DNA of 64,000 nt from a virus (IMGVR_UViG_3300005805_009577:96001-160000), one strand, 5' to 3'. Counted from the stretch's first letter, positions 1,938-46,679 are shown. Numbers and translations are program-made. The notes: generated by a model not told the origin, from the sequence alone.

Positions 1938-2177
1938 ATGGCTCGTGTTGATGCTATGTCTTTTGTGGATGCGTGGGTTAAGATTTATGAGCAGGGTGGC
2001 TCGCAGAGTGATGTTGCTCGTGAAATTGGCACTTCGGCCGCCAATGTTTCTACTCGTGCTAAGAAGTTGCGTGAGGCCGGAGTTGATCTGCCTGAACTCA
2101 AGGTTACTCGTACTGGCACTACGATTGACGTTGATTCGCTTAACGAGCGTCTTTCGGCTCGACTTGCGAAGGCTTGA
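1938..2177 (+). CDS. small HTH DNA-binding protein, cassette family copy 1
   Basis: QSDVAREIGTSAANVSTRAKKLR fits an HTH pattern; GAGGTG RBS; motif at 1871; terminator downstream. Confidence 0.9.
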   Translation: MARVDAMSFVDAWVKIYEQGGSQSDVAREIGTSAANVSTRAKKLREAGVDLPELKVTRTGTTIDVDSLNERLSARLAKA

Positions 2178-2206
2178 ACTTAAAGGGTGTAAATTTCACC
2201 CGTCCA

Positions 2207-2243
2207 CAACCCTGGGTTTTAAAAACCCAGGGTTGTTTTTTTT
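2207..2243 (+). terminator. intrinsic terminator
   Basis: CAACCCTGGGTTT/AAACCCAGGGTTG stem followed by a T-run. Confidence 0.85.
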
Positions 2244-2258
2244 ATAAACATCAAACAT

Positions 2259-2573
2259 ATGAATAATCTACTAGAAAAATTTGCCAAAGTTAAAAAAATA
2301 TCTATATTTGGGAAAAGGTGGTTTCAAAAAACATATGGAAACACTTACCATAGTTCCGAAATATATGTGAACGATAAACTTGTTCATAAAATAGAATTTT
2401 GCTATGGCTATGGAAGTCAATATGAATGGAATTCATTTACCTGGTTGAAGCAAAATGGTTATATTAAATTGTCAGAAAAAGATAAGCATTATTGCTTAGG
2501 TCGTTACTGCAGAGAAAATAATATAGAGCTTTGCAACGATGTTGTTGACGTAAACAGAAAAAAAGATCTTTAA
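2259..2573 (+). CDS. hypothetical phage protein
   Basis: KRWFQKTYGNTYHS...YGYGSQY pattern; family not named. Confidence 0.75.
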   Translation: MNNLLEKFAKVKKISIFGKRWFQKTYGNTYHSSEIYVNDKLVHKIEFCYGYGSQYEWNSFTWLKQNGYIKLSEKDKHYCLGRYCRENNIELCNDVVDVNRKKDL

Positions 2574-2643
2574 AAGATTTAAGTGACGAGTCCTTTTTTG
2601 GGTACGCCCTCTCTTTACGCAGATGGTTTACTAGGAGACAAAT

Positions 2644-3015
2644 ATGTTTAAAGCCGCTCCGGTGATATTTTTATCATTATCTTTAATTGGAAATATTGAA
2701 GGTATAAAAGAAAATAACATCAACCAAGTTAATAATGTTAATAAAAAAACTATTAAATTTTTAAATAAAAAGGCTACTTTTAAGCAACATTTAAAGGACA
2801 TAGAAAATCAATTCAACATATCTATTAAAATTGACAAACAGTCCCTTCAAAAACATGGCATTTCAATTAATCAAAGCATAGTGATTGAAGAAAAAGAATA
2901 TACATTTTCTGAATCACTGGATTTATTGACTACAAAAATTTGTATTTTTAATCGACAAAAAGTTGTTTTTTGGTCTATTGACGAAGTTAACAACGTAATG
3001 ATTTTTGGCAAATAA
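2644..3015 (+). CDS. exported protein with STN-like domain
   Basis: Signal-like N-terminus; IKIDKQSLQKHGISINQSI..FSESLDLL resembles planctomycete STN-type modules; AGGAG RBS; motif at 2602. Confidence 0.55.
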   Translation: MFKAAPVIFLSLSLIGNIEGIKENNINQVNNVNKKTIKFLNKKATFKQHLKDIENQFNISIKIDKQSLQKHGISINQSIVIEEKEYTFSESLDLLTTKICIFNRQKVVFWSIDEVNNVMIFGK

Positions 3016-3029
3016 TCAAGGAGGTTAAA

Positions 3030-3296
3030 TTGGCTATTATTCAGTTGGTAGTTAGTACCTTGGGATTGCTTTGGTTTATTTTTGGCGATAACAGTATAGC
3101 AATTAAAAGAATGACGCCTATAAAGCAAACAAATTTGCAAATAGGAGTTATAAAACAGCCAATTCAAAATCAAAAAGCAGGAGTTCAGTGGATATACAGA
3201 GGAAGAGACAACTACTATTACTATTACAGTGATATTTCTAACACTTATTTATGCAGAGTAAATATAGTTACTGGTGCGGTTGACTATAAAATTTAG
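3030..3296 (+). CDS. membrane-anchored hypothetical protein, paralog of 41430
   Basis: TTG start after GGAGG; W-x-YRG-x-D...YYSD-x-S...RVNI shared with 41430. Confidence 0.75.
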   Translation: MAIIQLVVSTLGLLWFIFGDNSIAIKRMTPIKQTNLQIGVIKQPIQNQKAGVQWIYRGRDNYYYYYSDISNTYLCRVNIVTGAVDYKI

Positions 3297-3442
3297 TCTT
3301 TAGTTTTATTGGCCAGCCTAATAAATGCATATGCTATAGAAAGTTCTATAAACATTATAATTGGCCAGCAAACTAATATTGGGTAAATTTGTTGCATTGT
3401 ACAATAATATAGTGATCTGACTTAAATTTTTATAGGTGTAAA

Positions 3443-3733
3443 ATGAATAAAATTGTTTACGGAAAAGTTAGCGGAACAGGCGAATTTCCACTTGATATGC
3501 TTAGGTATGATGTTTGTTCTCCTGCTACAGAACAAGATAGTTATTTAATTTCACGCACATTTAATCTTGAATCAAGGTGTCGTGGTGTTTGGGAAATTTA
3601 TGTAAAAAGAATTCTTTTAGAGCATAAAAAAGGAATGAACACCTTCACTTATGATAGGTGGCGGAGTTTCGGCTGTAGAGTGGAAGAGACTAAGGATGGA
3701 ATTCACGGCCAACGTCAAGGAAACTTATTTTAA
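3443..3733 (+). CDS. hypothetical phage protein
   Basis: VSGTGEFPLDMLRYDVCSP; AGGTG RBS. Confidence 0.75.
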   Translation: MNKIVYGKVSGTGEFPLDMLRYDVCSPATEQDSYLISRTFNLESRCRGVWEIYVKRILLEHKKGMNTFTYDRWRSFGCRVEETKDGIHGQRQGNLF

Positions 3734-3743
3734 GGAAAAATAA

Positions 3744-3956
3744 ATGTTTTTTGCACCAGATCATCATGCTAATATAAAGATAATGAAGTGGGTTGAATCG
3801 GCCATGCAAAGTGCCATGATAATTCAGTATGAAGTTTCAATGGGCAAAATTAATAAATGTCATTTTCAAACAATGATAAACAGCGTTTCTTACAATGTGA
3901 CCAAAGAAATTATTAAAGAAAAGACTCTATTAAGGTGCGAACCCAGCGTTAATTAG
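3744..3956 (+). CDS. hypothetical protein
   Basis: AAGGA RBS, co-directional. Confidence 0.55.
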   Translation: MFFAPDHHANIKIMKWVESAMQSAMIIQYEVSMGKINKCHFQTMINSVSYNVTKEIIKEKTLLRCEPSVN

Positions 3957-3965
3957 CACACAGGC

Positions 3966-3993: not shown

Positions 3994-3999
3994 ATTTTT

Positions 4000-4608: not shown

Positions 4609-4637
4609 AAAATCTTTTTAAAAAATTTTTAAATTTT

Positions 4638-6100: not shown

Positions 6101-7924
6101 ATGCTATTTAAAGACTGGCTCGTAATAAATGAAAATATAGAAAGTAATTTTGATTCTTGGGTTAGAAGTATACAAAAATATTCAAAACCATCTGAAGTTA
6201 TTCTGCTAAAATCTTTAGGAATATACGTTCCAGAAGATGAAAAATATCCTGGGCGAGGAGATATAGCGAACGAGTTTAATATAAGACTAAAAACTTTTAA
6301 AGAAATAATAATTAAAGTTCTTAAAAAGAAGAATCTAGAAAACTTAAATTGGTTGGCGTTTAGTGTAGGCTACTTAGTAGTCAAGACATTTCACGAAGAA
6401 GATTTGGAGCTAGCGATTGAAGTAACTAAACAAAGAATTGCCAGCGGGGAATTGCCAAAGTCAGAAATAGGATCTAAAGGATGGATGCAAATTGGAAATG
6501 AAGCTTTAGAACATGTTCAAGAGTACTTAAGACAACAACAGGAAATAAGCAATAGACAAAAAGAAAAATTGAAAAAATTAGGTGGAACTTTAGAAGAAGA
6601 TGAAAGTAAAGATTTAATACAATTGGTGGCCAAAGAAGTTTATGTAAAAGGAACTGTACGGGACGAATTAAAGTTATATAAACTTCCATCTTTAAATATA
6701 CACCCAGATTCAGTTGAACAGGCATATTCGCTGATAGCGGGAGTAATCTTGTCAAAGATAATCGCATCCCCAAAGTCTAAGATAGAATCTAGAAAAAGGT
6801 TGTTGTGTAAATACGGAAAAGGCACAGATTGGTGTACTGCAAATCCTTCTGGTGATTATGATCGATATTATATGAATAATGACATTTTTATAATGCATGA
6901 AAATAATCATCCTAAATATCAGTTTACTTCTTGTATAGACGATGGAAGAGCCGGTAGTGGCGGCAAACAATTTATGGATCCTTTAGATAGAAATGTTAGC
7001 AAAATAAAGTTAGAAGAAAAAGAGTTTTTAGAAAAGCACGCTTTAAAAGAAACCGAATGTTATATCCCTGGATTTAAAATAATTTTTTCAAGCTTAGAAA
7101 GTTATCTAAGCTCCGATGAAGATATTAAGAGAAAAATAGATCCAAAAAGTATAGTTGACTTGGTGAAAGATAAAAATTTTAAAAACGCTACAAAAAAACA
7201 ATTTATAGAACTTATATTAAACATCAACATAGACGACATACCTTCAAATGTTTTTAAGAGTTTTTTAAGAAATCTACCCGATAACTTTAATATTGACGCT
7301 TTAAATGATAAAAAAATATTTAATTCTATAGTTAAACTTCAATATGTGGACTATGAAGATTTAGATAAAAAAATAAGCAAAGAAAGACTAGAAAAGTTTT
7401 TAAACAACTATAAAAATGATTTATTTGACGATGAAATAAATCCTAAATACGAACAGGAAGTTCAGAATTCAAGAAAATCAACTATAAGAAATTTATTAAT
7501 TGCAGGGCACAGTTTAGAGTCAATGTTAAGTATATTATCTTTTTTAGTTAAAAAAATTAGCATAGGACCGGCAGAAGCCTATACCATATTCGATACAGTT
7601 ATAAGTCAAATACAAAGTGCTTTTTCTCAAAATTTAATATCGACTCCTACTGCCTTAAATTCTTTGGATTTATTTGCAAAAATTTTAGGCAAAGAAAATA
7701 TCAATAAAATTGATTTGAATAGATTTCAAGAAAGAATGAAAGTAAAACTAATACCAGAAGGAAATAAATTTAGAATAGATAAAACAGAAGATATAGGTGC
7801 AAAAAGAATCACTAAAAGTAGATTGTTGGCTTTGGGTTCTGCTAAAGATTTGATGATAAGGTTTTTAGAAAAACATGATGATAGAATAATTACTTCCTGG
7901 GAAGCAGAGTGGGATAAACAATAG
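6101..7924 (+). CDS. large hypothetical protein (LCKYGKGTDWCTAN family), paralog of 28414; candidate internal virion protein
   Basis: N-half aligns with 28414; N-terminus MLFKDWLVINE. Confidence 0.85.
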   Translation: MLFKDWLVINENIESNFDSWVRSIQKYSKPSEVILLKSLGIYVPEDEKYPGRGDIANEFNIRLKTFKEIIIKVLKKKNLENLNWLAFSVGYLVVKTFHEEDLELAIEVTKQRIASGELPKSEIGSKGWMQIGNEALEHVQEYLRQQQEISNRQKEKLKKLGGTLEEDESKDLIQLVAKEVYVKGTVRDELKLYKLPSLNIHPDSVEQAYSLIAGVILSKIIASPKSKIESRKRLLCKYGKGTDWCTANPSGDYDRYYMNNDIFIMHENNHPKYQFTSCIDDGRAGSGGKQFMDPLDRNVSKIKLEEKEFLEKHALKETECYIPGFKIIFSSLESYLSSDEDIKRKIDPKSIVDLVKDKNFKNATKKQFIELILNINIDDIPSNVFKSFLRNLPDNFNIDALNDKKIFNSIVKLQYVDYEDLDKKISKERLEKFLNNYKNDLFDDEINPKYEQEVQNSRKSTIRNLLIAGHSLESMLSILSFLVKKISIGPAEAYTIFDTVISQIQSAFSQNLISTPTALNSLDLFAKILGKENINKIDLNRFQERMKVKLIPEGNKFRIDKTEDIGAKRITKSRLLALGSAKDLMIRFLEKHDDRIITSWEAEWDKQ

Positions 7925-23323: not shown

Positions 23324-23396
23324 GGCCCCATAGTATAACGGTTCAGTATATCGGGCTTTCATCCCGAAGATCGGAGTTCGATTCTCCGTGGGGTCA
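23324..23396 (+). tRNA. tRNA-Glu(TTC)
   Basis: GGCCCCA/TGGGGTC acceptor, TCGGG-CT-TTC-AT-CCCGA, GTTCGA T-loop; no encoded CCA. Confidence 0.92.
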
Positions 23397-23522
23397 TTTT
23401 AAAAATTAAATTAAAAGGTTTAAACGAAAAGCCCTTTTCGGGGTACGGTCACTGGTTGACGATGGAAGGAAAGCCCGATATAATTAAAATTTTAAAGTAA
23501 AATAAAAACGACAAACAAAACT

Positions 23523-23595
23523 GGGTCATTAACTCAATTGGCAGAGTAGCTGGCTTTTAACCAGTAAGTTCTAGGTTCGAGTCCTAGATGACCCA
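23523..23595 (+). tRNA. tRNA-Lys(TTT)
   Basis: GGGTCAT/ATGACCC acceptor, GCTGG-CT-TTT-AA-CCAGT, GGTTCGAGTCC. Confidence 0.95.
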
Positions 23596-23711
23596 CTAAT
23601 TGAACCGCTGATTAAGTTCAGCGGAGTTTGTCGCGGGTATCAAACTATATTCAATAACCGTAGAGTTTATGGGGAAATTTCTGTAAGACTGAAATGTCCC
23701 TTTCTGGATAT

Positions 23712-24170
23712 ATGCGTAAAATAGTTTTTCTTGATGTTGATGGAGTTCTTAACGACCTTCATGTTCTTAGCACTAGAAGCGAACTAGGGACAGAACATCT
23801 TCTTAATTTTAAAAGCCTAGTACTTGCAACTAAGTGTGAAATTGTTTTAAGTAGTAGTTGACGAATAATTGAAGATTGGAAGCGAACTCTTAAACTTGCT
23901 TTTAAGGAACATAATATTCCTGTTTGGATAAGTGAAACTCCTAGATTAAACAGTACAGATTTCACAATAGTTCCAAGGCGAGATGAAATTTTACTTTGGA
24001 TAAATGAAAATATAACTGAACCTTCCAAAGTTATTGTATTGGATGATGAATGGGATGCTGATATAAATGGACACGGAATAAAGCATATAAAAGACAAATT
24101 TATACATACTAGCATGAACACTGGGTTGACACAAGATCACGTTAATATTGCTATAAGTTTTTTGTCATAA
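23712..24170 (+). pseudogene. HAD-superfamily (Swiss-army-knife RNA-repair-like) protein with in-frame TGA
   Basis: FLDVDGVLN...IVLSSS*R...RRDEI..W...VIVLDDE; TGA at 23859 sits at the family's conserved Trp (SSSWR). Confidence 0.85.
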
Positions 24171-24182
24171 GAAGAAAAAATT

Positions 24183-25335
24183 ATGAGCCATCCCGACCCA
24201 CTTTTTGATTATGAAAATTGTGAAGAAAACGATATTGAAGAAAGTGGAATAGACGGCATAGAAGGTTGCTACGACAAAAACGGATTATTTCACGAATACA
24301 TGAAAGAGGAAGGTTGGTACGGCCCTTTTGAGGAAAATAAATGAATTACTCTAACGAACACACAACAGATTGGGCTATTGGCGATAAAGATATGGAAACC
24401 ATCCTTTCTGCCCTTGAACATTATACAGAAAGCATGGTTAAGTTTCGTCATGTTCCCGGTATGCACGATTATATTACCTATGTTGAAGAATTGTGCCAAA
24501 GTATGGAAAATGCTTGGCATCCTAAACAAGAGGAAGAAAAATGAATACGAATGAAATTATTATTGATAAGATTATGGAAATCATTAAAGAAAACGATGAT
24601 TACACTGCTGCCGATGTAATCAAAAACATAATGCTTGAATTGGCAAGTGTTGGTGGAAATGTTGATCGAGAAGGCAGCGTCAATAGAACTATAGATATGG
24701 TTTGTGAAGAAACCTTTGGTTAAAAACATGGTTAAAATAAATTGGATAGGATTTGCTGGGGTAGAGAATATAAGAGACTTGTTGAATTATGGAACTAGAT
24801 TTAATAGTGGTGTGCCATATTCTTTTTTTCGAATTGGACCCATAATTATTAAAAAATATTTATAGGAAAAAACAATGACACGCGGAGAAATGATTGAGTT
24901 TGTTAATGACCAAACAGAAAAAACCGATAGAGAAAATGCTATCAGGCTGCTTGCGTATTTTCTTGAACACGACGACCCAGTAAATCCCGAGCTTTATTTT
25001 CAGCAAATGGTTGGCGGAGAATAATGGGAAATTATCACTACGATATATTACTTTTGCCGGTTATAGTCATGGCAATTATTGCATTGTTCACTAGCCTTAA
25101 TGATTATTAAATGAGAAATCCTAGTCAATTAATTAATATTCTAAATAATAGCAGCGGATCTGAGGGCTTTGAAAAGTTTGTCGATCAACTGACATTTGAA
25201 GAAATGACACAAATAATGATGATTGCAGAGTTGATTATCGAATGTCCTGAGTTGAGCAGTAAAAAGAATATTGATTTTAAAGAATTCTTAAATTATATGC
25301 AAAATAAGCGGAAAGCATTTATAGAAAAAAATTAG
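24183..25335 (+). CDS. run of small hypothetical ORFs (24183-24344, 24341-24544, 24541-24723, 25111-25335 and shorter ones)
   Basis: Overlapping ATGA start/stop junctions, co-directional. Confidence 0.65.
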
Positions 25336-31872: not shown

Positions 31873-34211
31873 ATGGGATGGGAATATAGAATAAGCAAAG
31901 AAATTAGAACTCACAAATATCTTCATTATGATCCCAAGATAGTTTACGGCATCAGGCAGGTACACGTTAATGAAAACGGAGAAGTTGACTATAACAAAGC
32001 AAATCCGCTTTTTATTGCTGAAACATTAGAAGAATTAAAAGACAATATTCAGGAAATGATGAATTGTTTTGATAAACCAATTTTCGACGAATACGAAGAA
32101 AAAGAATAAACCGGCTTACTAAAAATATAATTTAAAAGTCAATAGTGGTAAGTAAAGGTCTTGATAGAGACATACTTTATAAAAGTTTAAAGAATTGTCT
32201 TTATAAAGAAGAAAATAATAACATATGAATAAGATTTTAGAAGATTTTGTAGAGCCTAAAAAGATTCTTGGCAAAGATTTAAGACAGGGATATTACTTTT
32301 ACTGTGCGTTTCCAAAAAAATACGGTGAGCCTAATATGGGTTATATAGAAATAATTAAAATCGAGTCTTGGGGAAAAGATCAAAAAATGCTATGGTTCAA
32401 TGAATTAAAACCGTCTCCTATGATTGTTAATGATTATGACTATTATTCTGTGAAATTATATGATATGCCTTGATAGCGGCCAATTAGCAGTATTTGAAAA
32501 AAATTCTGTCACTGACTATAATATTGTCAAGGAAACATAGCCAGAATGAAGGTATTTGTTAAATGGCGAGATAAAGATACTGTTCACGAAGAAATTACAG
32601 AATTAATTTACGAAGATCAGGTTTATATTAAAGGCACAGATATATCTTTTCCAATCGAAACGCTAGGCGATGATAAAATCATATTTGAAGATGAATATGG
32701 AATATGGGGAGTAGACAAAAAAGACATTGTTGAGATTAAAAAGGTTTAAAAAATGACTAAATTTATATTAATAGTTGAAGATGAAGACAAAAAAACAAGA
32801 TATTTTGGCCCATTTGATGACGGCGAAAAAGCATTAGATTGGGGAGAAAAACATTTCGATAGCGAAAATTACTTTTTAATGAGCACTACTCTTTACTATC
32901 CAACCGATAAGGAAAAGAATTGAAAAATATATTTGCACACTAATACTAGTATTTTAGATATATGTCTTAGAAGTTATACGGTGAAAAACAGTGATCAAGC
33001 AGGAATTTCTAAATTTACTAGAAGATTTAGTCATACAGTATGATAGAGCAAATGGTTCTTACGCAGAAAATGAATTTGAAGGACTTTGTTTTTATGAGTT
33101 TGTTTGTAAAAAATTAGAGATAAACCATAAAATAGAAGATATTGTTTCTTCAAATGAAGATGTTTATGGAAAATATAGAAAAAATCTTGAACGAGGTTGG
33201 TAAAAAGAGATAAAACAATGAGTAAAGCTAAAAATAAATTTAATTGTGATGTTAATGGCAGTATTATGGTTACCGCAGCATTACGATATGCTCTTGGACG
33301 AAATACTTATGTCCCCGGGGCAGTTATAGATTGGATAAACGCACATTGGGAAAATCTGGACGGTAATACTAAAACTGTAATTGTGCGTGATGTTTTTGAA
33401 TATCTTTATAAGGATTATTGTTTTAGAAACGATGCAAAGTTTACGGACGTTGCGGGAGATTACGACCTTAAAAATTGGGAAAAGTTTGGTATCGAAAATT
33501 ATTGGAAACTAGAGTACAATGAACGTAAAGATGTTGATCAACAAATCAACAGCAACAAAGAACGATCAGTTTGGTTCGTTGAAAAATTATACGGAACACA
33601 ACCAATATGAAAACGCAAAATGCTTTTACCAATGGTTTAGAACTACCCAGAATATCAGTGATGAGTTTAAAGCCAGAAGATGTGCTAGTATTTTCTACTG
33701 TTGATAAACTAAGTGCTGAAGTTTATCACAGAGTTGAACAAAAAATTATAGATTGGAAAAAAGATTGTAATATAAGCAACAAACATTTACTATTAACATC
33801 AGCAATAGAATTAAAGGTATTAAGACCAGAAGAAACGGAAAAAATGACACCTAATGAGAATCAAATTTTATGAATACCAACGACAAAATATTTGATAGTT
33901 ACGATGAAGCTCATAAGTATAGTTTAACCGTACCTTGGAAACTTGAAACTTGCAATACTGGAGAAACTTGTTGGTGCAGAATAATTCTTCCAACAGAAAC
34001 TATTAAATATAAAAGAATAAGAGATCTTGATAAGACAGAAGTAATAGACGAATTAGAATGGATAATTCCAGATGGTAGTATAGACAAAGAAACAGCTGAA
34101 TATTTCTTAGAATTACATCATGATTCGATTAATAAAAAGAAATATATTCATAATAATATGGAAAAGTTAGGACAAATAAACAGTCTTAAAGAACTTGATG
34201 GAAACCAGTAA
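31873..34211 (+). CDS. run of small hypothetical ORFs (31873-32109, 32225-32473, 32546-32749, 32991-33203, 33197-33610, 33607-33873, 33870-34211)
   Basis: Co-directional, overlapping start/stop junctions, several with RBS. Confidence 0.7.
32494..32522 (+). promoter_or_regulatory. sigma70-like promoter
   Basis: TTGAAA-17-TATAAT upstream of 32546. Confidence 0.6.
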
Positions 34212-34658
34212 TGAAATCAGTAATGAAAAAAACTATTATTAAAATTAAAACTTATAATCAAGAATCTAAAGAAAAAAGCTGGGTATTGACATATACACAG
34301 CAAGCAAAATTAAAAGGAAAATGGATAAAGACATACACAGAAGAAGCTAGAAAAGAAAGTTTTGTGGGTTGTTGACCCAATAAGGGGTGTATTAAGAAGA
34401 TATTTGTGGGAAATGTGCCCAAAACGGTGTTTTTATAATGTACATAAAAAACCATTATAAAACAAGTATTTAAGAGTTTTGATTAAAATGGGATTAAAAG
34501 GTAATTTAAAGTTGGCCTCGCCCCATCTTAATATAGCGTCTATTATTTCCGCGTATACGCTCTGAATTCACATTTATTAGTCTTTTCACATTATTTTAGT
34601 GCCTTATATCCCCTTATTAAATAAGGGTCTAGGAACGCATTTAAAACAATACTCGATA

Positions 34659-34835
34659 TTACTTCTTAGCGGCTAATTTACGCTTTAATTCTGCGTTTTC
34701 ATTTTGTAATACTTGAAGGCGATTAGTCAGATCATTGATTCCGTGTATTATACGGATGATTTGAGCAGCTTTATCATTTTCATATGTATTAGTGGCTAAT
34801 CTTCGTAATTCGCTTAAGTCTTCTTGATTTATCAT
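34659..34835 (-). CDS. small coiled-coil protein (58 aa)
   Basis: MINQEDLSELRRLAT...LQNENAELKRKL; below the ORF-track cutoff. Confidence 0.55.
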   Translation of the reverse strand: MINQEDLSELRRLATNTYENDKAAQIIRIIHGINDLTNRLQVLQNENAELKRKLAAKK

Positions 34836-34882
34836 AAAATAATATAGTATAAATATATTTTTATATATACTAAATTATTTTT

Positions 34883-35107
34883 ATGCAAGAAAAAGAATAT
34901 TTAGAAAAATGCTTTGAAGTCTTAAATAGTTTTAATGTCAGATACGATGCAGACACTATAAATCTAAACAGTGGGGATTATGGATGTATTCTAAATCCTA
35001 ATTTTAAATATTATGATCTTTTTGGAGGAGAAAGCATATATTCTATTGCAGAGTACGTAGCAAAAAAAACAAATAAAAAAATAATAATGGAGAATGAAAA
35101 CTACTAA
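34883..35107 (+). CDS. hypothetical protein
   Basis: ORF track; stop overlaps the next ATG. Confidence 0.65.
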   Translation: MQEKEYLEKCFEVLNSFNVRYDADTINLNSGDYGCILNPNFKYYDLFGGESIYSIAEYVAKKTNKKIIMENENY

Positions 35108-35676
35108 TGGAACATATTTGCCACAAAATACAAGGATATTTTAATTATCCTGATTTATACACAAAAATAGCCCAAGAATTACCAGACGGATTTAAATTTG
35201 CCGAAATAGGAGTGTGGAAAGGATGTAGTTTAAGTTATTTTGTGGTAGAAGCAATTAATGCTGGTAAAAACTTTACAGCATATGCTATAGACACATTTGA
35301 AGGTAGTATAGAGCATCAAAAAGGACAATGGTGCCACGACCCTATAGTAAATACTAAAGATGGATTATACAATCATTTTTTAAGTAATATTGAACCAATA
35401 AAAGATAAAATAAAAGTATTACGAGGTAAAAGCACAGATGTAGCCTTAAGTTTCCCAGATGAATACTTAGACACTTTATTCATAGATGGTGCTCATGATT
35501 ATGACAGTGTATTAGCAGATTTAAAAGCATATTATCCTAAAGTTAAACGTGGATCTCCGATATATGGCCATGATCTTGATTGGGCAAGTGTAAGACAAGC
35601 AGTAATTGATTTCCGCAAAGAAAAAAATCTAACGCTAACTCCAGTTAGTCGCAGCAGTTGGAAATTAAGTAATTAA
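35107..35676 (+). CDS. class I SAM-dependent methyltransferase (Methyltransf_24-like)
   Basis: FAEIGVWKGCS, AIDTFEGS, FIDGAHDYDSV..D, GHD. Confidence 0.9.
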   Translation: MEHICHKIQGYFNYPDLYTKIAQELPDGFKFAEIGVWKGCSLSYFVVEAINAGKNFTAYAIDTFEGSIEHQKGQWCHDPIVNTKDGLYNHFLSNIEPIKDKIKVLRGKSTDVALSFPDEYLDTLFIDGAHDYDSVLADLKAYYPKVKRGSPIYGHDLDWASVRQAVIDFRKEKNLTLTPVSRSSWKLSN

Positions 35677-35785
35677 AACATTATTTAATTATTAACCTTA
35701 AAAGGTGTTTTTGGGGTACGTCTTAGCGTTGTAAGCCGACACTGGTTCGGTAAAAGACTGGAATGATAAATTTAGAGGTGATAAT

Positions 35786-36016
35786 ATGGCTAAGGTTGAC
35801 GCTGCTTCGTTTGTGGATGCGTGGGTTAAGATTTATGAGCAGGGTGGCTCGCAGAGTGATGTTGCTCGTGAAATTGGCACTTCGGCTGCTAACGTGTCGA
35901 ATCGTGCTAAGAAGTTGCGTGATGCGGGAGTTGATCTTCCCGAACTGACGATTACGCGTGGTGTTAAGCTTGACGTTGAGTCGCTTAACGCTCGGCTGAA
36001 GGCTCGGATTGGTTGA
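35786..36016 (+). CDS. small HTH protein, cassette family copy 2 (recombinant)
   Basis: Motif at 35716; GAGGTG RBS; 5' part identical to copy 1, 3' part identical to the 40977 copy. Confidence 0.9.
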   Translation: MAKVDAASFVDAWVKIYEQGGSQSDVAREIGTSAANVSNRAKKLRDAGVDLPELTITRGVKLDVESLNARLKARIG

Positions 36017-36448: not shown

Positions 36449-36519
36449 CCTAGGTGGAAACCGGTAGGCAAGTCACTCTTATAAGGTGACGACGCAAGGT
36501 TCGACTCCTTGACCTAGGA
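36449..36519 (+). tRNA. tRNA-Ile(TAT), atypical D-arm
   Basis: CCTAGGT/ACCTAGG acceptor, TCACT-CT-TAT-AA-GGTGA, CAAGG-TTCGACT-CCTTG; D-arm short and poorly paired. Confidence 0.7.
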
Positions 36520-36532
36520 CTTAATATTTAGC

Positions 36533-36738: not shown

Positions 36739-36811
36739 GGGAGTATAGTCCAACGGCAGAGACAAAGGACTTAAAATCCTTCAAGTTCAGGTTCGAATCC
36801 TGATACTCCTA
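36739..36811 (+). tRNA. tRNA-Leu(TAA), short variable loop
   Basis: GGGAGTA/TACTCCT acceptor, AAGGA-CT-TAA-AA-TCCTT, TCAGG-TTCGAAT-CCTGA. Confidence 0.9.
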
Positions 36812-37034
36812 CTTATGCTAGTTCATTTAGAAAACGGTAAAACTTATAAAATAGTAGAATCTTGGATTAAAGAAAAGAAAATCTACTATCCTGCCGACAT
36901 ATTAGGTATGAATCTGCCCGAACCAAAACCCAGGTTCAAATTAACGCCTAAAGGAATTAAAATAAAAGAATAAGACTCTTGAATCATAAATTTTTTTCTG
37001 ATATAATATTTTCAATTATAGGAGAAAAAAGTTT

Positions 37035-37898: not shown

Positions 37899-38972
37899 AT
37901 GGATAACAAGTTCACACTATCATCTGAAAAACTTGAATCACGACGGCTGTGTAGTGTAACTAGAGACTTGCTTTATGTTCGGGTGCGGTTTAGCGATCAG
38001 GCTAACGCACCTGAAACTATAGAGACAAGCAACTTTATTGTGAACAAAACGGCAACTGCTATTCGAGATTTTAGTGGAGGACAAGTTAATCTTTCCACTA
38101 CTATACGAGATGTAACATTGCCGTATAGGGCAAGTTATTATGGCACTAATACTTACACAATTTCTAATCACGCTCAAAATATACTTCGTCAATCTGGACT
38201 GAACCTGAATAATTACGAACATAGTAATTTCAGGTACAACAGTCGTGCAGGATTTTTTGTAGGTTTAGGAGAAGTAGGCGGTAAGATTACTTGGACTAAA
38301 GACTCTGATCCGGGTACGCTTATTCATGAAATTGGACATAATTTAGGATTGCGTCATAGCAGTTTTGTTAATCCAAATAATAATGCTCATCCTTTTGGGC
38401 CAGGACGAACTTTTGAATATGGCGATGTATTTTCCAATATGGGTAATGCTCGTTATACCGATTGGAACGCAACTCAAAAGTGGGCTTTAGGTTACATTTC
38501 AAACAACAGTGTTAGAGCTGTAAATGCTAATAGTTTTAATATCGTTGTTAGCTCTCATGACAATGCAGCGTTTTACAATAAAAGCGAAGTATATCTAGTT
38601 AATATTCCTATTGGTGGTAACAATTCAATATATGCAAGTTACAGGCGTGATGCCGGCGGTGTTGTGATTCATGTTGGCAATAGTTTTAGGCCAACCGGCG
38701 ATACTTTAATTGACGGCAATCCGCAAACTGAATTGAGTACAGACGCTGCTCTTAAACTTGGACAGTCAATTACCAATTTTAGAAGGCCGGGAGTTAGCGA
38801 CGATATTAGAATTACTGTAACGAGCATTGTGGGCAATCGTGCAACCATTAATGTGAACTTCGGTGCAGTCGTACCTAAAATAGCTCATAATGCAAACTTG
38901 ATTGCTGCATTTGCAAGCATGGCAAACGAACCTGTAGAAAGATGCAAAATCAGATACCCTGTTAGGTTGTAG
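37899..38972 (+). CDS. secreted metzincin metalloprotease (M11/gametolysin-like) with planctomycete-type N-terminal motif
   Basis: HEIGHNLGLRH zinc motif, YGDVFSNMG Met-turn; EKLESRRLCS resembles the planctomycete extracellular motif. Confidence 0.85.
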   Translation: MDNKFTLSSEKLESRRLCSVTRDLLYVRVRFSDQANAPETIETSNFIVNKTATAIRDFSGGQVNLSTTIRDVTLPYRASYYGTNTYTISNHAQNILRQSGLNLNNYEHSNFRYNSRAGFFVGLGEVGGKITWTKDSDPGTLIHEIGHNLGLRHSSFVNPNNNAHPFGPGRTFEYGDVFSNMGNARYTDWNATQKWALGYISNNSVRAVNANSFNIVVSSHDNAAFYNKSEVYLVNIPIGGNNSIYASYRRDAGGVVIHVGNSFRPTGDTLIDGNPQTELSTDAALKLGQSITNFRRPGVSDDIRITVTSIVGNRATINVNFGAVVPKIAHNANLIAAFASMANEPVERCKIRYPVRL

Positions 38973-39062
38973 GTTTAAAACTTAAATAAAATTTCAAGAA
39001 AACTTAAAGCCCCTTTTCGGGGTACGCTCTTGAAATGTCGGAGAGTTTACAGGGAGATAACA

Positions 39063-39578
39063 ATGCAACGTAGAAACTTTATCAAAGGCTTACTTGCAAG
39101 TACAGTTGCAGGAACTTTTCCAGCAACGGCAGATGCAAGTGATAACGTTCAACTTAATCAAAGAATTGTAAATATTGCCCGTGGTGCGATTGGCAAGCCC
39201 GGTGGCAATCGTTACAATAGTTGGCTTTTTGGTTATAATGTTATGATGGCTGCTGGTGGTCGTGGGCCTTATCATGGCCCGCAAAACCAATATGCTTGGG
39301 GTAGACCAATAGGTTGGAATGAACTTGGCCCGGGCGATTATATTCAAATTGAATCGCCAACTGTTTTTAAAACCCCTCCGCCTAATTGTCGTGCATATTG
39401 GGGTTGTAGTGGACGTTGCACTTGGATTGTTTTAAACAGACAAAATGGTCGAGCACCTGGAAGCGTACTTAACATAGCGTATATGTATCGTGTGAACAGG
39501 GTGCAGGCTGCTAGGATTGACGTTTGGGATAGAACTTGTGGAAACCAAATATATCTTTACAGACCACAATTACGGTAA
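39063..39578 (+). CDS. Tat-signal protein, NlpC/P60/CHAP-like fold, catalytic residues apparently altered
   Basis: MQRRNFIKGLLA..ADA Tat signal; NQRIVNIAR..IG...AAGG..YAWGRPI....PGDYIQ; motif at 39022. Confidence 0.6.
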   Translation: MQRRNFIKGLLASTVAGTFPATADASDNVQLNQRIVNIARGAIGKPGGNRYNSWLFGYNVMMAAGGRGPYHGPQNQYAWGRPIGWNELGPGDYIQIESPTVFKTPPPNCRAYWGCSGRCTWIVLNRQNGRAPGSVLNIAYMYRVNRVQAARIDVWDRTCGNQIYLYRPQLR

Positions 39579-40059: not shown

Positions 40060-40178
40060 AAATCCTCCTTGAATATTAGCTTCCTAATAGTATTTATAAA
40101 AAAGAAATAATAAAATTCAATCATCCTTTTCGGGGTACGGCTCTAGGATACTAGCCGGTAAAACCTGAGAGAAAAAAA

Positions 40179-40427
40179 ATGAACACTATTTATCCAAAAG
40201 GTGCATGGAACGTACGGATTAAGGCAAACATTGAAACTTTTCTTGATGCCTATTTGACGGTACTTAACAACGGTGGTAATTACGGCGATGTTGCTCGAAT
40301 TATCGGCTGTGAAATCATTGATGTTCAATTTGCAGAAGTGCGAATCCGTGCAAGCGGAGTTAAACTTCCTAGGCTGAATTTTACTGAGGAAAATGATGAT
40401 CGAGTTGTTATGCTGATGCAGTCATAA
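40179..40427 (+). CDS. small HTH protein, divergent cassette-family member
   Basis: FLDAY....NGGNYGDVARIIG....RASGVKLPRL; motif at 40135. Confidence 0.85.
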   Translation: MNTIYPKGAWNVRIKANIETFLDAYLTVLNNGGNYGDVARIIGCEIIDVQFAEVRIRASGVKLPRLNFTEENDDRVVMLMQS

Positions 40428-40852: not shown

Positions 40853-40976
40853 AGCCCACTCCAATAATATTATACAAAAAAATAAATTAATTAAAAGATA
40901 GAAATAAAGCCTCCTTTTTGGGGTACGTTTTGGGGTTGTGGTTCGATTGGTTCTAATAAACAGGAGACTGGTTAAA

Positions 40977-41204
40977 ATGCGAGTTGATGCTGCTACTTTC
41001 GTCGATGCTTGGGTCAGTGCTTTCGAAGCCGGTGGCAATCAGAGTGACGTTGCCCGTACGCTTGGTTGTAGTGCTGCTAACGTGTCGAATCGTGCTAAGA
41101 AGTTGCGTGATGCGGGAGTTGATCTTCCCGAACTTACCGTGACTCGTGGTGTTAAGCTTGACATTGAGTCGCTTAACGCTCGGCTTAAGGCTCGGATTGG
41201 TTGA
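40977..41204 (+). CDS. small HTH protein, cassette family
   Basis: AGGAGA RBS; motif at 40923. Confidence 0.9.
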   Translation: MRVDAATFVDAWVSAFEAGGNQSDVARTLGCSAANVSNRAKKLRDAGVDLPELTVTRGVKLDIESLNARLKARIG

Positions 41205-42505: not shown

Positions 42506-42607
42506 AAAAAAATAATAAATTAAATTAACCAGTATCATTAAAAAGTCTTTTGGGAGTACGTCCTAAGGTTGTGGTGGTTACGACCCGCGAAACCGGAGCA
42601 TAAAACA

Positions 42608-42832
42608 ATGCAACTTACATTCGAAGAAAAGACCCTGAAGTATCTTGATGGCGTGAACATCAACATTGACCTTGGAACTTTCATTGACGAATATATGAAG
42701 GCTTACAAGGCCGGTCAGACTAAGGCTGAACTTGGCGAGACGCTTGGCATCAATCATATTGAAGTTGCGATTATTGTTGACAAGATGGCTAGTTTCGGTG
42801 TGAAACTTCCCCAACTTCGGATTCAGATTTAG
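42608..42832 (+). CDS. small HTH protein, divergent cassette-family member
   Basis: TFIDEYMKAYKAGQTKAELGETLG....SFGVKLPQL; GGAG RBS; motif at 42556. Confidence 0.8.
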   Translation: MQLTFEEKTLKYLDGVNINIDLGTFIDEYMKAYKAGQTKAELGETLGINHIEVAIIVDKMASFGVKLPQLRIQI

Positions 42833-42892: not shown

Positions 42893-42924
42893 GAAAACAC
42901 TTGTGAAAGGGTTTGTGAAGCAAA

Positions 42925-43134
42925 ATGAATCAAACCTATAGCATTCGTATCATTTTCGATGGAAGCAAATATGATACTACGCTTATCTCAGGGTTTACTT
43001 ATAAGCAAGCATTCGAATATGCTCGTAAGTGTGTAACAAAAGAGATTAATTATCTCTTGTTCTCTGGTCGGAATGTGAACATATACGTTGAAAATGATTT
43101 GGGAAAAAGGCTTGCAACTTACTACGTATATTAA
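42925..43134 (+). CDS. small hypothetical protein
   Basis: ORF flanked on both sides by TTGTGAA pairs. Confidence 0.7.
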   Translation: MNQTYSIRIIFDGSKYDTTLISGFTYKQAFEYARKCVTKEINYLLFSGRNVNIYVENDLGKRLATYYVY

Positions 43135-43165
43135 ACTTTTTGTGAAAACATTTGTGAAGAGTCAG

Positions 43166-43263
43166 TAAAAACACTAAAAAAAGCCTAAAAAACACTAAAA
43201 AAAGCCTAAAAAAGCTTAAAAAAAGCCAAAAATAAGCTAAAAAACAAGCCAAAAAATGAAAAA
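43166..43263. repeat. phased A-tract tandem repeat (about 10-11 bp period)
   Basis: AAAAACACT-AAAAAAAGCCT-AAAAAACACT-AAAAAAAGCCT-AAAAAAGCTT-AAAAAAAGCC... Confidence 0.85.
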
Positions 43264-43437
43264 TATACTCAATATACTTGCTATTTTAAGTACATTAACA
43301 CTCAATGGAAGTGAATTTGGATGTACTCTTTGGGCAAATTTAACATTGTTTAGGTTCTAATTGAAAGTTAACCGCACCTTTTAGCGGTACGGTAACTGGG
43401 TGTGACGGTTGGAACTAACCCCTAGGAGAAGGTTAAC

Positions 43438-43665
43438 ATGCGAGTTGATGCCAACACTTTCATCGACACTTGGTGCGACGTTTACGACAACGGTGGAAAT
43501 CAAAGTGACGTTGCAAGGCGTTTAGGTTGCAGTGCGGCTAACGTAAGTAATCGTGCAAAGAAACTGCGTGATGCCGGAGTTGATTTGCCTGAATTGACAG
43601 TTACTCGTGGTGTGAAACTTGATATTGAAAGTCTAAACGCAAGGCTGCGTGAACGAATCGGTTAA
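43438..43665 (+). CDS. small HTH protein, cassette family
   Basis: AGGAGA RBS; motif at 43387; near-duplicate of 44304. Confidence 0.9.
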   Translation: MRVDANTFIDTWCDVYDNGGNQSDVARRLGCSAANVSNRAKKLRDAGVDLPELTVTRGVKLDIESLNARLRERIG

Positions 43666-43842
43666 ATAAATATACCGAAAGTTATACCCGGAGTAAAATC
43701 CGGGTATAACCGTTTATATTAAAAATCCTTTTAGAGGTACGGCAGGATAGAACAAGTTTGTGAACTTACTTGTGAAGGTTAAAACAAACTTGTGAAACCT
43801 TTTCGGAGTACGGCTACGGGTTAACCCCGGAGAAATATACCA

Positions 43843-44227: not shown

Positions 44228-44303
44228 TATATTTTAAAAATTAAAAGTTAATTTTGGGGTACGGTAACTGGGTGTGATCGGTTAACCCTTGGAGATAACA
44301 ATC

Positions 44304-44534
44304 ATGGCACGAGTTGACGCTGGCAATTTCATCGAAGTGTGGTGCGACGTTTACGACAACGGTGGAAATCAAAGTGACGTTGCCCGTAAACTGGGTTGCA
44401 GTGCGGCTAACGTAAGTAATCGTGCAAAGAAACTGCGTGATGCCGGAGTTGATTTGCCTGAATTGACAGTTACTCGTGGCGTTAAACTTGACATTGAAAG
44501 TTTGAATGCCCGGCTGCGTGAACGAATCGGTTGA
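44304..44534 (+). CDS. small HTH protein, cassette family
   Basis: GGAGA RBS; motif at 44259. Confidence 0.9.
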   Translation: MARVDAGNFIEVWCDVYDNGGNQSDVARKLGCSAANVSNRAKKLRDAGVDLPELTVTRGVKLDIESLNARLRERIG

Positions 44535-44620
44535 AAAAAGTGTGAACGCGAGTTATACCCGGAGTAAAATCCGGGTATAACCGTTTATATTAAAAAACCT
44601 TTTAGGGGTACGGCTATAGG

Positions 44621-44650
44621 TTGACAATTTGATTGGTAATAAAGTATAAT
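44621..44650 (+). promoter_or_regulatory. consensus sigma70 promoter fused to a motif copy
   Basis: TTGACA-18-TATAAT; its TTG is the N8-spaced TTG of motif 44608. Confidence 0.6.
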
Positions 44651-44715
44651 TAAAAAAAAGATTACTATTGGCTTTTAGGGGTACGGTAGGTTGACGTCTC
44701 ACAGGAGAAAACGAA

Positions 44716-44784: not shown

Positions 44785-44867
44785 AGTAGGCAAAACTTTT
44801 TTGCCGACGACAGTTGTCTTTTTGGGGTACGTTGAGACGGTGGGTTCAGTCGTCCAGGAGAAACATC

Positions 44868-44942
44868 GTGCGAAATGCAGATAAGGCGATTTTGGCGGTT
44901 TCATTCATCATGGGCATTATCGTCGCTATTATAATCGCCTAA
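44868..44942 (+). CDS. micro membrane protein (24 aa)
   Basis: AGGAGA RBS, GTG start; MRNADKAILAVSFIMGIIVAIIIA; motif at 44827. Confidence 0.7.
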   Translation: MRNADKAILAVSFIMGIIVAIIIA

Positions 44943-45058
44943 AAGAAGTTATACCCTAGGATAAGCCTAGGGTATAACCGTTGATACTACGAAACCTTTT
45001 TTGGGTACGTTATCGGGGTGTCGCCGGTTGAGAGCGACAAACTAACGGAGAAAAAGAA

Positions 45059-45289
45059 ATGGCACGGGTTGACGCTGGTAGTTTCGTCGATGCTTGGATG
45101 GATGCTTATGACAAGGGTGGCAATCAGAGCGACGTTGCTCGTACGCTTGGTTGCTCTGCCGCGAACGTTTCGAACCGTGCTAAGAAACTTCGGGAAGCCG
45201 GGGTTGACCTGCCTGAACTTCAGGTTGTGCGGGGCGTCAAGTTGGATATTGAAAGCCTGAACGCTCGTCTTAAGGCGAGGATCGGCTGA
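45059..45289 (+). CDS. small HTH protein, cassette family
   Basis: GGAGA RBS; motif at 45005; near-duplicate of 46098. Confidence 0.9.
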   Translation: MARVDAGSFVDAWMDAYDKGGNQSDVARTLGCSAANVSNRAKKLREAGVDLPELQVVRGVKLDIESLNARLKARIG

Positions 45290-45368
45290 TAACAAAAGTT
45301 ATACCCGGGGTAAAACCCGGGTATAACCCTTTACACACATATACCTTTTTGGGGTACGGCAAGAGGGC

Positions 45369-45452
45369 ATGGATACTATCATCGCTATTACGTTTGCTTT
45401 CGTCGGTGCCGGGTTTATAGGCAAGTATCTTTGGAACGAAATGGAATATTAA
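45369..45452 (+). CDS. micro membrane protein (27 aa)
   Basis: MDTIIAITFAFVGAGFIGKYLWNEMEY; ATG begins 11 nt after motif core 45354. Confidence 0.65.
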   Translation: MDTIIAITFAFVGAGFIGKYLWNEMEY

Positions 45453-45522
45453 ACGAACGGCTACAGCCGCCAAGGCGATGCCGGTCTTTTCGGGGTACGG
45501 CGGACATGAGGAGGGCAAAGCG

Positions 45523-45645
45523 ATGCCTCTAGTAAGTGCAATCGTCTTCTTATTAATCCGTAGCGTATCTGCTAGGCTATATCGGATTAGCCAGGTTCGT
45601 TCTGAACCGGTTTATCCAGTTCTTATCGGAGCAAAAGGAAGGTAG
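45523..45645 (+). CDS. micro-protein (40 aa)
   Basis: GAGGAGG RBS; motif at 45495. Confidence 0.55.
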   Translation: MPLVSAIVFLLIRSVSARLYRISQVRSEPVYPVLIGAKGR

Positions 45646-45649
45646 ACCC

Positions 45650-45757
45650 ATGACTATAGATGAAGCAATGGCATTTAGTTTCGTTCGTTATGGCATTATG
45701 TCTTACGAAGAATTCCTAGTATGGCTAGCAAAACAGCAGATAGTAAAGGCTAGCTAG
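45650..45757 (+). CDS. micro-protein (35 aa)
   Basis: AAGGAAGG RBS; MTIDEAMAFSFVRYGIMSYEEFL...; palindrome follows. Confidence 0.6.
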   Translation: MTIDEAMAFSFVRYGIMSYEEFLVWLAKQQIVKAS

Positions 45758-45854
45758 GTAGATTACACCCTAGAGAAAATCTAGGGTGTAATCCTAACAA
45801 TCCCCTGAGCTTTTTGGGGTACGTTACAGGGTTGTCTCAAGGAGGATGACAACA

Positions 45855-46019
45855 ATGGAAACAGCAGTTAGCATCGCGGTTATGATGGGAGTTGGATTTG
45901 CGGCTGCCCTTGCACAAGTTATTTCGGACATGATGGAAGAAAAGGCCATTGTCCGAAACAACGAAGACAAGGCTAGGATCATCATGGAAGAATACGAAGA
46001 ATATACGGAGGGGGTATAA
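45855..46019 (+). CDS. small membrane protein (54 aa)
   Basis: GGAGGA RBS; TM helix plus acidic tail; motif at 45819. Confidence 0.7.
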   Translation: METAVSIAVMMGVGFAAALAQVISDMMEEKAIVRNNEDKARIIMEEYEEYTEGV

Positions 46020-46097
46020 CATACCCTTATCTGACCTAGAACCTTTTTGGGGTACGTTACAACATCGTGGTCGATAACACTAACTGGAGAAAAAGAA

Positions 46098-46328
46098 ATG
46101 GCACGAGTTGACGCTGCTAACTTCGTCGATGCTTGGATGAACGCGTATGAGAACGGTGGCAATCAGAGTGACGTTGCCCGTGACCTTGGTTGTAGTGCTG
46201 CGAACGTCAGCAACCGGGCTAAGAAACTTCGGGATGCCGGGGTTGACCTGCCTGAACTGACCGTCACGCGGGGCGTCAAGTTGGATATTGAAAGCCTGAA
46301 CGCTCGACTGAAGGCTAGGATCGGTTGA
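46098..46328 (+). CDS. small HTH protein, cassette family
   Basis: GGAGA RBS; motif at 46052. Confidence 0.9.
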   Translation: MARVDAANFVDAWMNAYENGGNQSDVARDLGCSAANVSNRAKKLRDAGVDLPELTVTRGVKLDIESLNARLKARIG

Positions 46329-46436
46329 ACCTAAGTTATACCCTAGGGAAACCTAGGGTATAACCCTTTACATGCATATACCTTTTCGGGGTACGGCAAG
46401 GGTATGTGGATCGGTTAACCCTAGGAGAAAAGAATC

Positions 46437-46679
46437 ATGCGGACACGAAAGAGTCGTATCAGCGTTCAGCGTTTCGTTTCGACTTGGTGCCGGGTGTATC
46501 GTCAGGGTGGCAATCAGGATATGGTTGCAAAGGCTCTGCATTGCACCGGTGCTAACGTCAGTATTCGTGCCAAGGCTTTGCGTAAGAGTGGCGTGAAGTT
46601 GCCACCGCTGAATCCCGGTCGGGTTTATGACACGGCTGTTGTGAGAATGAACAAAGACATTGCGGAAATGATTGGATAG
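46437..46679 (+). CDS. small HTH protein, divergent cassette-family member
   Basis: GGNQDMVAKALHCTGANVSIRAKALRKSGVKLP; AGGAGA RBS; motif at 46391. Confidence 0.9.
   Translation: MRTRKSRISVQRFVSTWCRVYRQGGNQDMVAKALHCTGANVSIRAKALRKSGVKLPPLNPGRVYDTAVVRMNKDIAEMIG

Follow-up and report, generated by a model that had tools for sequence, protein, structure and literature searches.

Phages with large genomes are known to multiply single small DNA-binding domains: in jumbo phages, DNA-binding transcription factors such as those of the Myb-type helix-turn-helix (HTH) have undergone lineage-specific expansion, Bacillus phage G carries ~35 zinc-ribbon copies, and specific transcription factors or structural DNA binders have been put forward as the options for what such expansions do (Iyer et al. 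2021, Viruses 13:63, PMC7824862). Here we describe a family of small HTH proteins encoded by an array of separate transcription units in a window of 64,000 nucleotides (nt), which corresponds to bases 96001-160000 of an IMG/VR virus record (IMGVR_UViG_3300005805_009577; a contig of 181,145 bp, henceforth referred to as G000; positions are those of the window unless marked 'contig'). As in the jumbo-phage expansions (PMC7824862), many paralogues of one small DNA-binding domain are present (12 in the 181-kb contig), and the same two options apply to what they do. Unlike in those expansions, the domain is of the HTH_24-like winged-helix type with a G-V-x-L-P tail, and the phage group is uncultivated. 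The family also goes beyond the jumbo-phage precedent in that its paralogues are old, are orthologous across phages, have one invariant reading helix in common and carry surfaces specific to each subtype.

The closest working analogy, in our view, would be the auto-repressors of the Aca and Cro type. Like Aca2 (PMC6765145), the G000 proteins are small HTH proteins from a phage, and their genes stand among very small ones of early type with strong-looking promoters. Unlike aca genes, the G000 copies are monocistronic, have a terminator of their own and are interleaved with small unrelated genes instead of standing in an operon behind a partner gene; furthermore, no inverted repeat was seen in their promoters, the only strong one being the covarying terminator hairpin described below, and twelve paralogues are not a feature of Aca systems. 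Based on the sequences and on a structural model, we consider, with middling confidence, that the family is a panel of phage regulators for the phage's own motif-driven small-gene cassettes, which would have a DNA word in common and differ in the surfaces offered to partners.

The copies and their fold

The first-pass annotation of this stretch had described ten copies of a small HTH protein, and all ten open reading frames (ORFs) were found, starting at 1938, 35786, 40179, 40977, 42608, 43438, 44304, 45059, 46098 and 46437, all on the plus strand. They encode proteins of 74-82 amino acids (aa) and each is preceded by a ribosome-binding site of the GGAG type. A six-frame search of the whole contig brought the family to 12 members (E-values 2e-47 to 4e-3) with protein sizes of 74-108 aa. 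They are given below with the upstream motif and, for core copies, the residues at positions 14-16/28-32, both of which are described further on.

1938..2177, plus strand: core copy, 79 aa, VKI/REIT; ORF whose product is sister to L006_3840 in the tree
35786..36016, plus strand: core copy, 76 aa, VKI/REIT; motif at 35709-35720
40179..40427, plus strand: divergent subfamily B, 82 aa, acidic (E 1.5e-9 to core); motif at 40128-40139
40977..41204, plus strand: core copy, 75 aa, VSA/RTLC; motif at 40916-40927
42608..42832, plus strand: divergent subfamily C, 74 aa (E 1.6e-5 to core); motif at 42549-42560
43438..43665, plus strand: core copy, 75 aa, CDV/RRLC; motif at 43380-43391
44304..44534, plus strand: core copy, 76 aa, CDV/RKLC; motif at 44252-44263
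45059..45289, plus strand: core copy, 76 aa, MDA/RTLC; motif at 44998-45009
46098..46328, plus strand: core copy, 76 aa, MNA/RDLC, the copy modelled with AlphaFold; motif at 46045-46056
46437..46679, plus strand: divergent subfamily D, 80 aa, very basic (E 1.4e-13 to core); motif at 46384-46395
contig 7172-7423: extra copy, very basic, 83 aa
contig 92992-93318: extra copy, 108 aa

The seven core copies (1938, 35786, 40977, 43438, 44304, 45059 and 46098) are 64-92% identical. The 32-residue block QSDVAR-x-[LI]G[CT]SAANVS[NT]RAKKLR[DE]AGVDLPEL is exact in 7/7 of them, and the single variable residue of helix 2 reads E/E/T/R/K/T/D across the series; both were correctly described in the annotation. 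The 1938 copy occupies the syntenic position, which is probably the ancestral one, and its orthologue in the L006-L008 contigs stands in the same gene order (HTH, ~105-aa gene, Metallophos, 264-aa gene, PcfJ).

The HTH fold claimed for the family was borne out by structure prediction. An AlphaFold2 model of the 46098 copy, made with a family alignment of 48 sequences as input, reached a predicted local distance difference test score (pLDDT) of 85.7 and contains a three-helix core (residues 6-18, 23-30 and 34-46; pLDDT >90) and a C-terminal amphipathic helix (residues 64-75), which are connected by a coil linker (residues 47-63; pLDDT 73-76); the linker and the C-terminal helix are the less certain parts. 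No strand was predicted in this model that could form a beta-hairpin wing after helix 3. Foldseek searches of PDB and BFVD returned no match at E <=1e-3, and all of the weak matches were HTH DNA-binding domains. An exhaustive structural aligner placed the model at Z 4-5.5 relative to the N-terminal winged-HTH domains of IdeR, BirA, NiaR, MntR, LsrR and Lrp, as well as to SpoIIID and the DNA-binding domain of GcrA, with the N-terminal domain of BirA at Z 5.0 (root-mean-square deviation 2.5 Å across 55 residues); the structural neighbours thereby include DNA-binding domains of the Lrp/AsnC, BirA, DtxR and SorC types, plus ArdK. Because the structural matches are all HTH domains yet weak, and no wing is predicted, the claim is confined to the fold class: the model supports an HTH fold, not membership of a named family.

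Sequence profiles gave a similar picture. Pfam HTH_24 (PF13412) was the commonest top match, at 16-22 bits and in every case below its gathering cut-off of 21.9 (21.8 bits for the 1938 copy, 21.5 bits for the 35786 copy and 16-20 bits for the others, with three copies giving no match). No Pfam, PHROG, NCBIfam or PADLOC family exceeded its threshold for the family proteins: Sigma70_r4 and Sigma70_r4_2 remained below cut-off (E 0.03-0.19; 12-14 bits against cut-offs of 24-26), and HTH_3, Cro and P22_Cro matched the window copies only at E values of at least 0.1. The ESM Atlas returned unnamed viral clusters only. The family is a real one, previously unnamed and without a curated family match. 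With HTH_24 and the Lrp/AsnC and BirA N-terminal domains, its best neighbours in sequence and structure, it shares the three-helix core and a helix 3 that runs into L-R-x-x-G-V-x-L, and we read the L-R-x-x-G-V-x-L-P string as the probable counterpart of the helix 3-to-strand junction of Lrp/AsnC- and BirA-type winged helices. It differs from HTH_24-type winged HTHs in its sub-cut-off score, the lack of a predicted wing, and the extended linker and C-terminal amphipathic helix and, unlike the Lrp/AsnC/BirA type, the G000 proteins have no ligand or oligomerisation domain. The KorA/ArdK plasmid repressors (PDB 7bca, 7bbq) are also similar in size and in having an N-terminal HTH and a helical C-terminal part; however, the family profile matched the ArdK chains in PDB at just E 0.04, the Foldseek probability was 0.3-0.5, the KORA model (PF16509) matched no copy in the window and KorB matches were weak (E of at least 0.005).

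Age, selection and subtypes

To be read as a means of producing more of one protein, as had been suggested, the array fits poorly. Pairwise comparison of the seven core copies by the NG86 method gave synonymous divergence (dS) values from 0.38 to saturation, nonsynonymous divergence (dN) values of 0.05-0.37 and dN/dS ratios of 0.05-0.34, which confirms that the paralogues are old and under purifying selection, the latter as originally proposed. By region, the ratio of the nonsynonymous to the synonymous proportion of differences (pN/pS) was 0.46 in residues 1-21, 0.21 in the HTH and 0.28 in the C-terminal remainder. The pair at dS 0.38, the 43438 and 44304 copies, differs at 28/228 nt of coding sequence (88% identity). 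Codons of both the TCN and the AGY type are used for the invariant Ser38, a switch that speaks of long divergence under constraint. The G000 copies do not form a group of their own in a maximum-likelihood tree built from 105 members of the family, each being nearer to a partner from another contig: 42608 pairs with L001_8083 (support 96), 46437 with P0089 (99), the 7172 copy with P0169 (99) and the 92992 copy with P0095 (100), and 43438 and 44304 group with P0021, P0018 and P0051 (96); 40179 groups with P0175 and L001_3536, and a copy from L024 aligns as the same type. Because the copies are old, have nearer orthologues in other contigs and belong to recurring subtypes, the sequences point to non-redundant paralogues.

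The recognition helix had been called frozen, and it is. The reading helix of the core copies (S-A-A-N-V-S-N/T-R-A-K-K-L-R; net charge +3 for helix 3) shows no change among 18 core copies taken from six contigs (G000, L001, L003, L006 and L020-L026) and hardly any among 72 distinct core-type proteins; conservation in the core copies is highest in this basic helix, with N36, S38, R40, K42, K43 and R45. Variation is found where the annotation had placed it, in the N-terminal part and helix 2, at positions 7, 8, 14-16, 18 and 19 of helix 1 and at positions 28 and 29 at the end of helix 2; the core copies also differ in the linker and the C-terminal helix. Because the variable sites of helix 1 are spaced as on one side of a helix, the other side being taken by the conserved F9, W13 and Y17, we infer from the model that they lie on the solvent face, beside positions 28/29. 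Across the 72 core-type proteins, residues 14-16 covary with residues 28-32 and form about five recurring subtypes (VKI/REIT, VNA/RELC, MDA/RTLC, MNA/RDLC and CDV/RRLC), of which G000 carries one or two of every kind but VNA/RELC, the 40977 copy having the related VSA/RTLC. Positive selection on this patch was not shown, as pN ~ pS per codon and the synonymous sites are saturated. The proposal that the variable surface follows a changing host partner is weakened by these values and by the conservation of the residues within subtypes, which, at the level of sequence, argues for fixed specialisation over an ongoing race.

The three divergent copies (40179, 42608 and 46437) are divergent as described. 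Because they have orthologues elsewhere and have kept the fold, they are, judged from their sequences, conserved subfamilies and not decaying genes. An AlphaFold model of the 42608 copy (pLDDT 77) contains core helices at residues 22-35, 39-46 and 50-62, with an extra N-terminal helix and no C-terminal helix. In the 40179 and 42608 types the basic helix 3 has been lost (net charge -1) and the proteins are acidic (isoelectric point, pI, 5.2), whereas the 46437 type has a net charge of +12 (pI 11.2) and the 7172 copy one of +14 (pI 10.5). The divergent subfamilies probably serve in other roles: the two without the basic helix may bind protein, and the two very basic members may bind nucleic acid more generally.

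Outside G000, cultured phages yielded no homologue when 50,697 phage records were searched with the array (blastn) and with a core copy (tblastn), a pattern scan of IMG/VR matched the contig itself as the sole hit, and a scan of metagenome contigs gave 7 short loci only. The close homologues form 64 clusters (identity 64-91%), all metagenomic and mainly on short contigs. Arrays are present in related contigs (10 copies in 11 kb in L001 and 5 copies in 4 kb in L024), and copy number differs between them. A HMMER profile search of 1.84 billion representatives returned 1,859 matches; the small single-domain ones are, by their sequences, the same phage family, and this form was seen only in uncultivated phage contigs and metagenomes. 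The top-scoring matches were proteins of 300-1,100 aa with 5-12 tandem HTH units and the signature ...IS-x-R-I-K-K-M-R-E-R-G-V-D-I-P, among which P0065, P0066, P0067, P0071 and P0078 have a conserved C-terminal tail in common; at L018:8001-9908, two such genes are adjacent in an ordinary bacterial chromosome context (ThrRS, NAD synthase; 28% G+C). Because each of their units scores 14-34 bits against the family profile and ~22 bits against HTH_24, these bacterial proteins are best placed as relatives at the level of HTH_24, not as proven orthologues. A distant single-copy member was also seen at L015:10001-10261 (a 385.6-kb contig, 48% G+C), right after genes for a MoxR-type ATPase and a DUF2201 VWA protein, a gene pair that also occurs in G000 (contig 33383-35801); in L015, three GGTACGGC words are clustered 500 bp upstream of a nearby gene.

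Transcription units and candidate DNA words

Each copy forms a monocistronic unit consisting of a promoter-like motif, a leader with the ribosome-binding site, the gene and a terminator hairpin. The 12-nt motif TTTNGGGGTACG is found with no more than one mismatch 40-66 nt upstream of the ATG in 9/10 window copies, and the 1938 copy has a variant of it with 2 mismatches. The statement that each copy has its own motif stands in this form, but the motif is not peculiar to this family, most occurrences being found before unrelated small genes. The motif was counted 29 times in the window, where 0.5 occurrences are expected, and 35 times in the contig, always on the plus strand, and its 16-nt form reads c-C-T-T-T-T-n-G-G-G-G-T-A-C-G-g. 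It does not resemble TTGACA/TATAAT, and sigma-70-like sites were not enriched (37 found against 31 expected). Across the array-bearing lineages, GGTACG is fixed and strand-specific (49:3 in G000, 27:0 in L001, 20:0 in L003 and 18:2 in L024), while the 5' half of the motif varies (...C-T-T-T-T-n-G-G in G000, A-C-T-G-G-G-T-T in L001 and C-T-G-T-C-G-G in L024). A second word, TTGTGAA, is enriched on the plus strand in the arrays of G000, L001, L003 and L024 and occurs as direct repeats 10-12 nt apart; by our own calculation from the positions, 3 close pairs were seen in G000 where ~0.06 are expected. A search of the array for enriched 8-mers gave nothing besides the motif, coding repeats and the hairpin. 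The repeats and the hairpins of the window are as follows.

42901..42919, plus strand: TTGTGAA direct repeat with a 12-nt period, shortly before the ORF at 42925; a candidate protein-binding word
43140..43158, plus strand: TTGTGAA direct repeat with a 12-nt period
43758..43796, plus strand: three copies of TTGTGAA within a motif-bounded unit that has no ORF
2206..2243, plus strand: hairpin with T-run resembling an intrinsic terminator, 3' of the 1938 copy; a counterpart lies 3' of the L006 orthologue
43681..43710, plus strand: terminator-type hairpin GTTATACCCGG / CCGGGTATAAC, 3' of the 43438 copy; next motif 16 nt on
44552..44581, plus strand: hairpin with the same sequence as that at 43681-43710, here 3' of the 44304 copy
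45298..45327, plus strand: hairpin 3' of the 45059 copy
46335..46364, plus strand: hairpin 3' of the 46098 copy

The palindrome GGGTATAAC had been suggested as a binding site for the family. Its occurrences are confined to the array, where each immediately follows a core copy on the 3' side, except for two that lie a short way upstream of one. When these elements were aligned with their counterparts from L001, L024 and L026, the 12-bp stem displayed compensatory double changes in 10/12 pairs and essentially no broken pair; the loop reads GTAAAA or GAAA, and a T-rich run comes after the hairpin. To judge from this covariation the palindrome is a terminator or stabiliser hairpin and is unlikely to be an operator: it was set aside as such because its stem changes across lineages, by compensatory pairs, while helix 3 remains constant. 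The outcome is a short list of candidate DNA words from which the palindrome has been removed. ArdK binds direct-repeat DNA, and by analogy a similar mode of binding is conceivable for the TTGTGAA repeats.

The distance from the end of a hairpin to the next motif is 16-20 nt. The hairpin-plus-motif modules at 43681-43742 and 44552-44613 differ at 2/~62 nt (~97% identity) whereas the genes that they flank are 88% identical; this hints at conversion of the non-coding module or at strong selection acting on it, and copies may have arisen by recombination at such modules. This architecture is like that of the T4-type PeSL cassettes (PMC2839356, PMC4122927), in which a stem-loop is followed by a promoter-like element, small genes flank the module and the region is plastic, and in which the modules are likewise more alike than the flanked genes. 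Unlike in PeSLs, the G000 motif (a C-T-rich run, then GGGGTACGG) is not a sigma-70 consensus, and the likeness is one of setting, not of protein.

Several features of the array accompany these units. At 43730-43812 and 44601-44685 there are motif-bounded units without an ORF of at least 40 aa, in which the second motif comes 71-73 nt behind the first; such units may represent regulatory spacers or encode small RNAs. In L024, four motifs follow one another at exact 70-nt intervals (2849-3059). An A-rich tandem repeat with units like AAAAACACTAAAAAAAGCCT occupies 43166-43250, between the 42925 ORF and the 43438 copy.

Candidate roles and genomic setting

If the family is a panel of regulators, the core copies would recognise specific sequences and thereby control the motif-driven small-gene cassettes of the phage itself, working in the manner of early auto-regulators of the Cro or Aca type and presumably at early times. 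All of them would bind one DNA word through the same reading helix and would differ in the partner with which they pair or which they recruit, either one another or the host RNA polymerase with the phage sigma factor. The best candidates for the word would be GGTACG, the core of the promoter-like motif, and the TTGTGAA direct repeats 10-12 nt apart, which are favoured because both stay fixed across lineages along with the fixed helix. The invariant helix could have either of them as its shared address; it is just as conceivable that the motif is simply a promoter read by a sigma factor. The contig encodes one such factor:

contig 23328-24230 (L010:3328-4230): sigma-70-family factor, complete (regions 2 and 4)

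As this factor has both regions, we ruled out that the HTH proteins supply a missing sigma region 4 in trans. No RNA polymerase subunits were found across the G000 contig, and no T7-type polymerase was found in it by a search that gave no signal in control genomes either. Because one complete sigma-70 factor is encoded and an RNA polymerase was not found in the contig, the phage presumably uses the host polymerase.

Several observations weigh against a panel of regulators. The motif precedes ~25 unrelated genes, mostly small, and a sigma factor alone could read it; GGTACG and the family could co-occur merely as traits of the same lineages. The TTGTGAA clusters span only ~1 kb in G000, and some of them lie beside ribosome-binding sites or within coding sequence. 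The structural matches are weak (Z <=5.5) and generic for an HTH of 50 residues, the core proteins are near neutral overall (pI ~8), and pN ~ pS in the variable patch also fits unconstrained surface residues, to which conservation within subtypes is only a qualitative counter.

Three other explanations were considered for the copy number and its retention. Many copies could provide bulk amounts of a single nucleoid-binding or silencing protein for coating the DNA of the host or the phage, an idea that draws on the twelve copies each having a strong-looking unit of its own, on the two very basic members (+12, pI 11.2; +14, pI 10.5), on the multivalent binding suggested by bacterial relatives with 5-12 tandem HTH units and on the structural DNA-binding option raised by Iyer et al. 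for the zinc-ribbon expansion of phage G (PMC7824862). Copies kept for dosage are, however, expected to be recent or homogenised, whereas here dS ranges from 0.38 to saturation, every copy has its own orthologues in other phages, the surface subtypes are conserved and the core proteins are near neutral; we therefore regard bulk coating as unlikely. The overall pattern of evolution, with an invariant helix, conserved surface subtypes and separate units, favours non-redundant regulators over gene dosage. Recombination between the hairpin-plus-promoter repeats could, on the other hand, have multiplied the genes by unequal exchange and left a copy number without function. The modules after 43438 and 44304, which differ at 2/~62 nt next to coding sequences that differ at 28/228 nt, the match of the architecture to PeSLs (PMC2839356, PMC4122927) and the variable copy number among related contigs would all be accounted for in this way. 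Shuffling of this kind explains the origin of the copies but not their retention, since all of them are intact with dN/dS of 0.05-0.34 and the paralogues are kept as orthologous lineages in several phages, and we consider a functionless by-product very improbable.

The proteins could, alternatively, not bind DNA at all and use the HTH-like fold to capture sigma, RNA polymerase or a defence protein of the host, with a different target for each subtype. T4 AsiA uses an HTH-like fold for gripping protein in this manner. The variation is concentrated on one exposed patch that is conserved within subtypes, subfamilies B and C are conserved and keep the fold yet have no basic helix 3, and there is a weak, sub-threshold resemblance to sigma region 4, all of which is in line with protein-binding appropriators. 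Against this, conservation in the core copies peaks at the basic helix 3, which is the usual DNA-reading face, and the structural neighbours are all DNA-binding domains, so that for the family as a whole we find it quite unlikely. A more elaborate form of the regulatory panel, which we offer as speculation and hold to be improbable, is a combinatorial arrangement of one address and many adaptors, in which the ~five subtypes would meet on one word (GGTACG or TTGTGAA) and, by recruiting or blocking different partners or by hetero-oligomerising, would time dozens of mini-cassettes. Hetero-oligomers of the subtypes would then be the split-gene equivalent of the bacterial proteins with 5-12 tandem HTH units. 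Large uncultivated phages have many unnamed small genes, of which one family is clearly defined here; should its proteins indeed control the GGTACG-driven cassettes, they would give access to how transcription is programmed in an entire clade of huge phages that cannot as yet be cultivated.

G000 has a G+C content of ~30% and an estimated completeness of 78% (CheckV). For one marker, the closest cultured relatives are jumbo coliphages of 350-390 kb, at an identity of merely ~26-29%; this identity to cultured phages is very low and G000 is therefore an uncultivated large phage. It encodes several PcfJ-like proteins, the MoxR-type ATPase with its DUF2201 VWA partner, a CobT-like protein, an M32 carboxypeptidase and many tRNAs. 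The window has a total of seven tRNA genes, of which tRNA-Ile(UAU) (36449-36520) and tRNA-Leu(UAA) (36739-36812) lie just past the 35786 copy, on the border of the array. Two larger genes are found within the array, at 39030-39578 and 37899-38972, each with the motif directly before it and with a G+C content above that of the phage; one encodes a 182-aa protein with a signal peptide of the twin-arginine type (RRNFIK...), and the other a 357-aa protein with an HExxH metallopeptidase signature and weak matches to Reprolysin_3 and M66.

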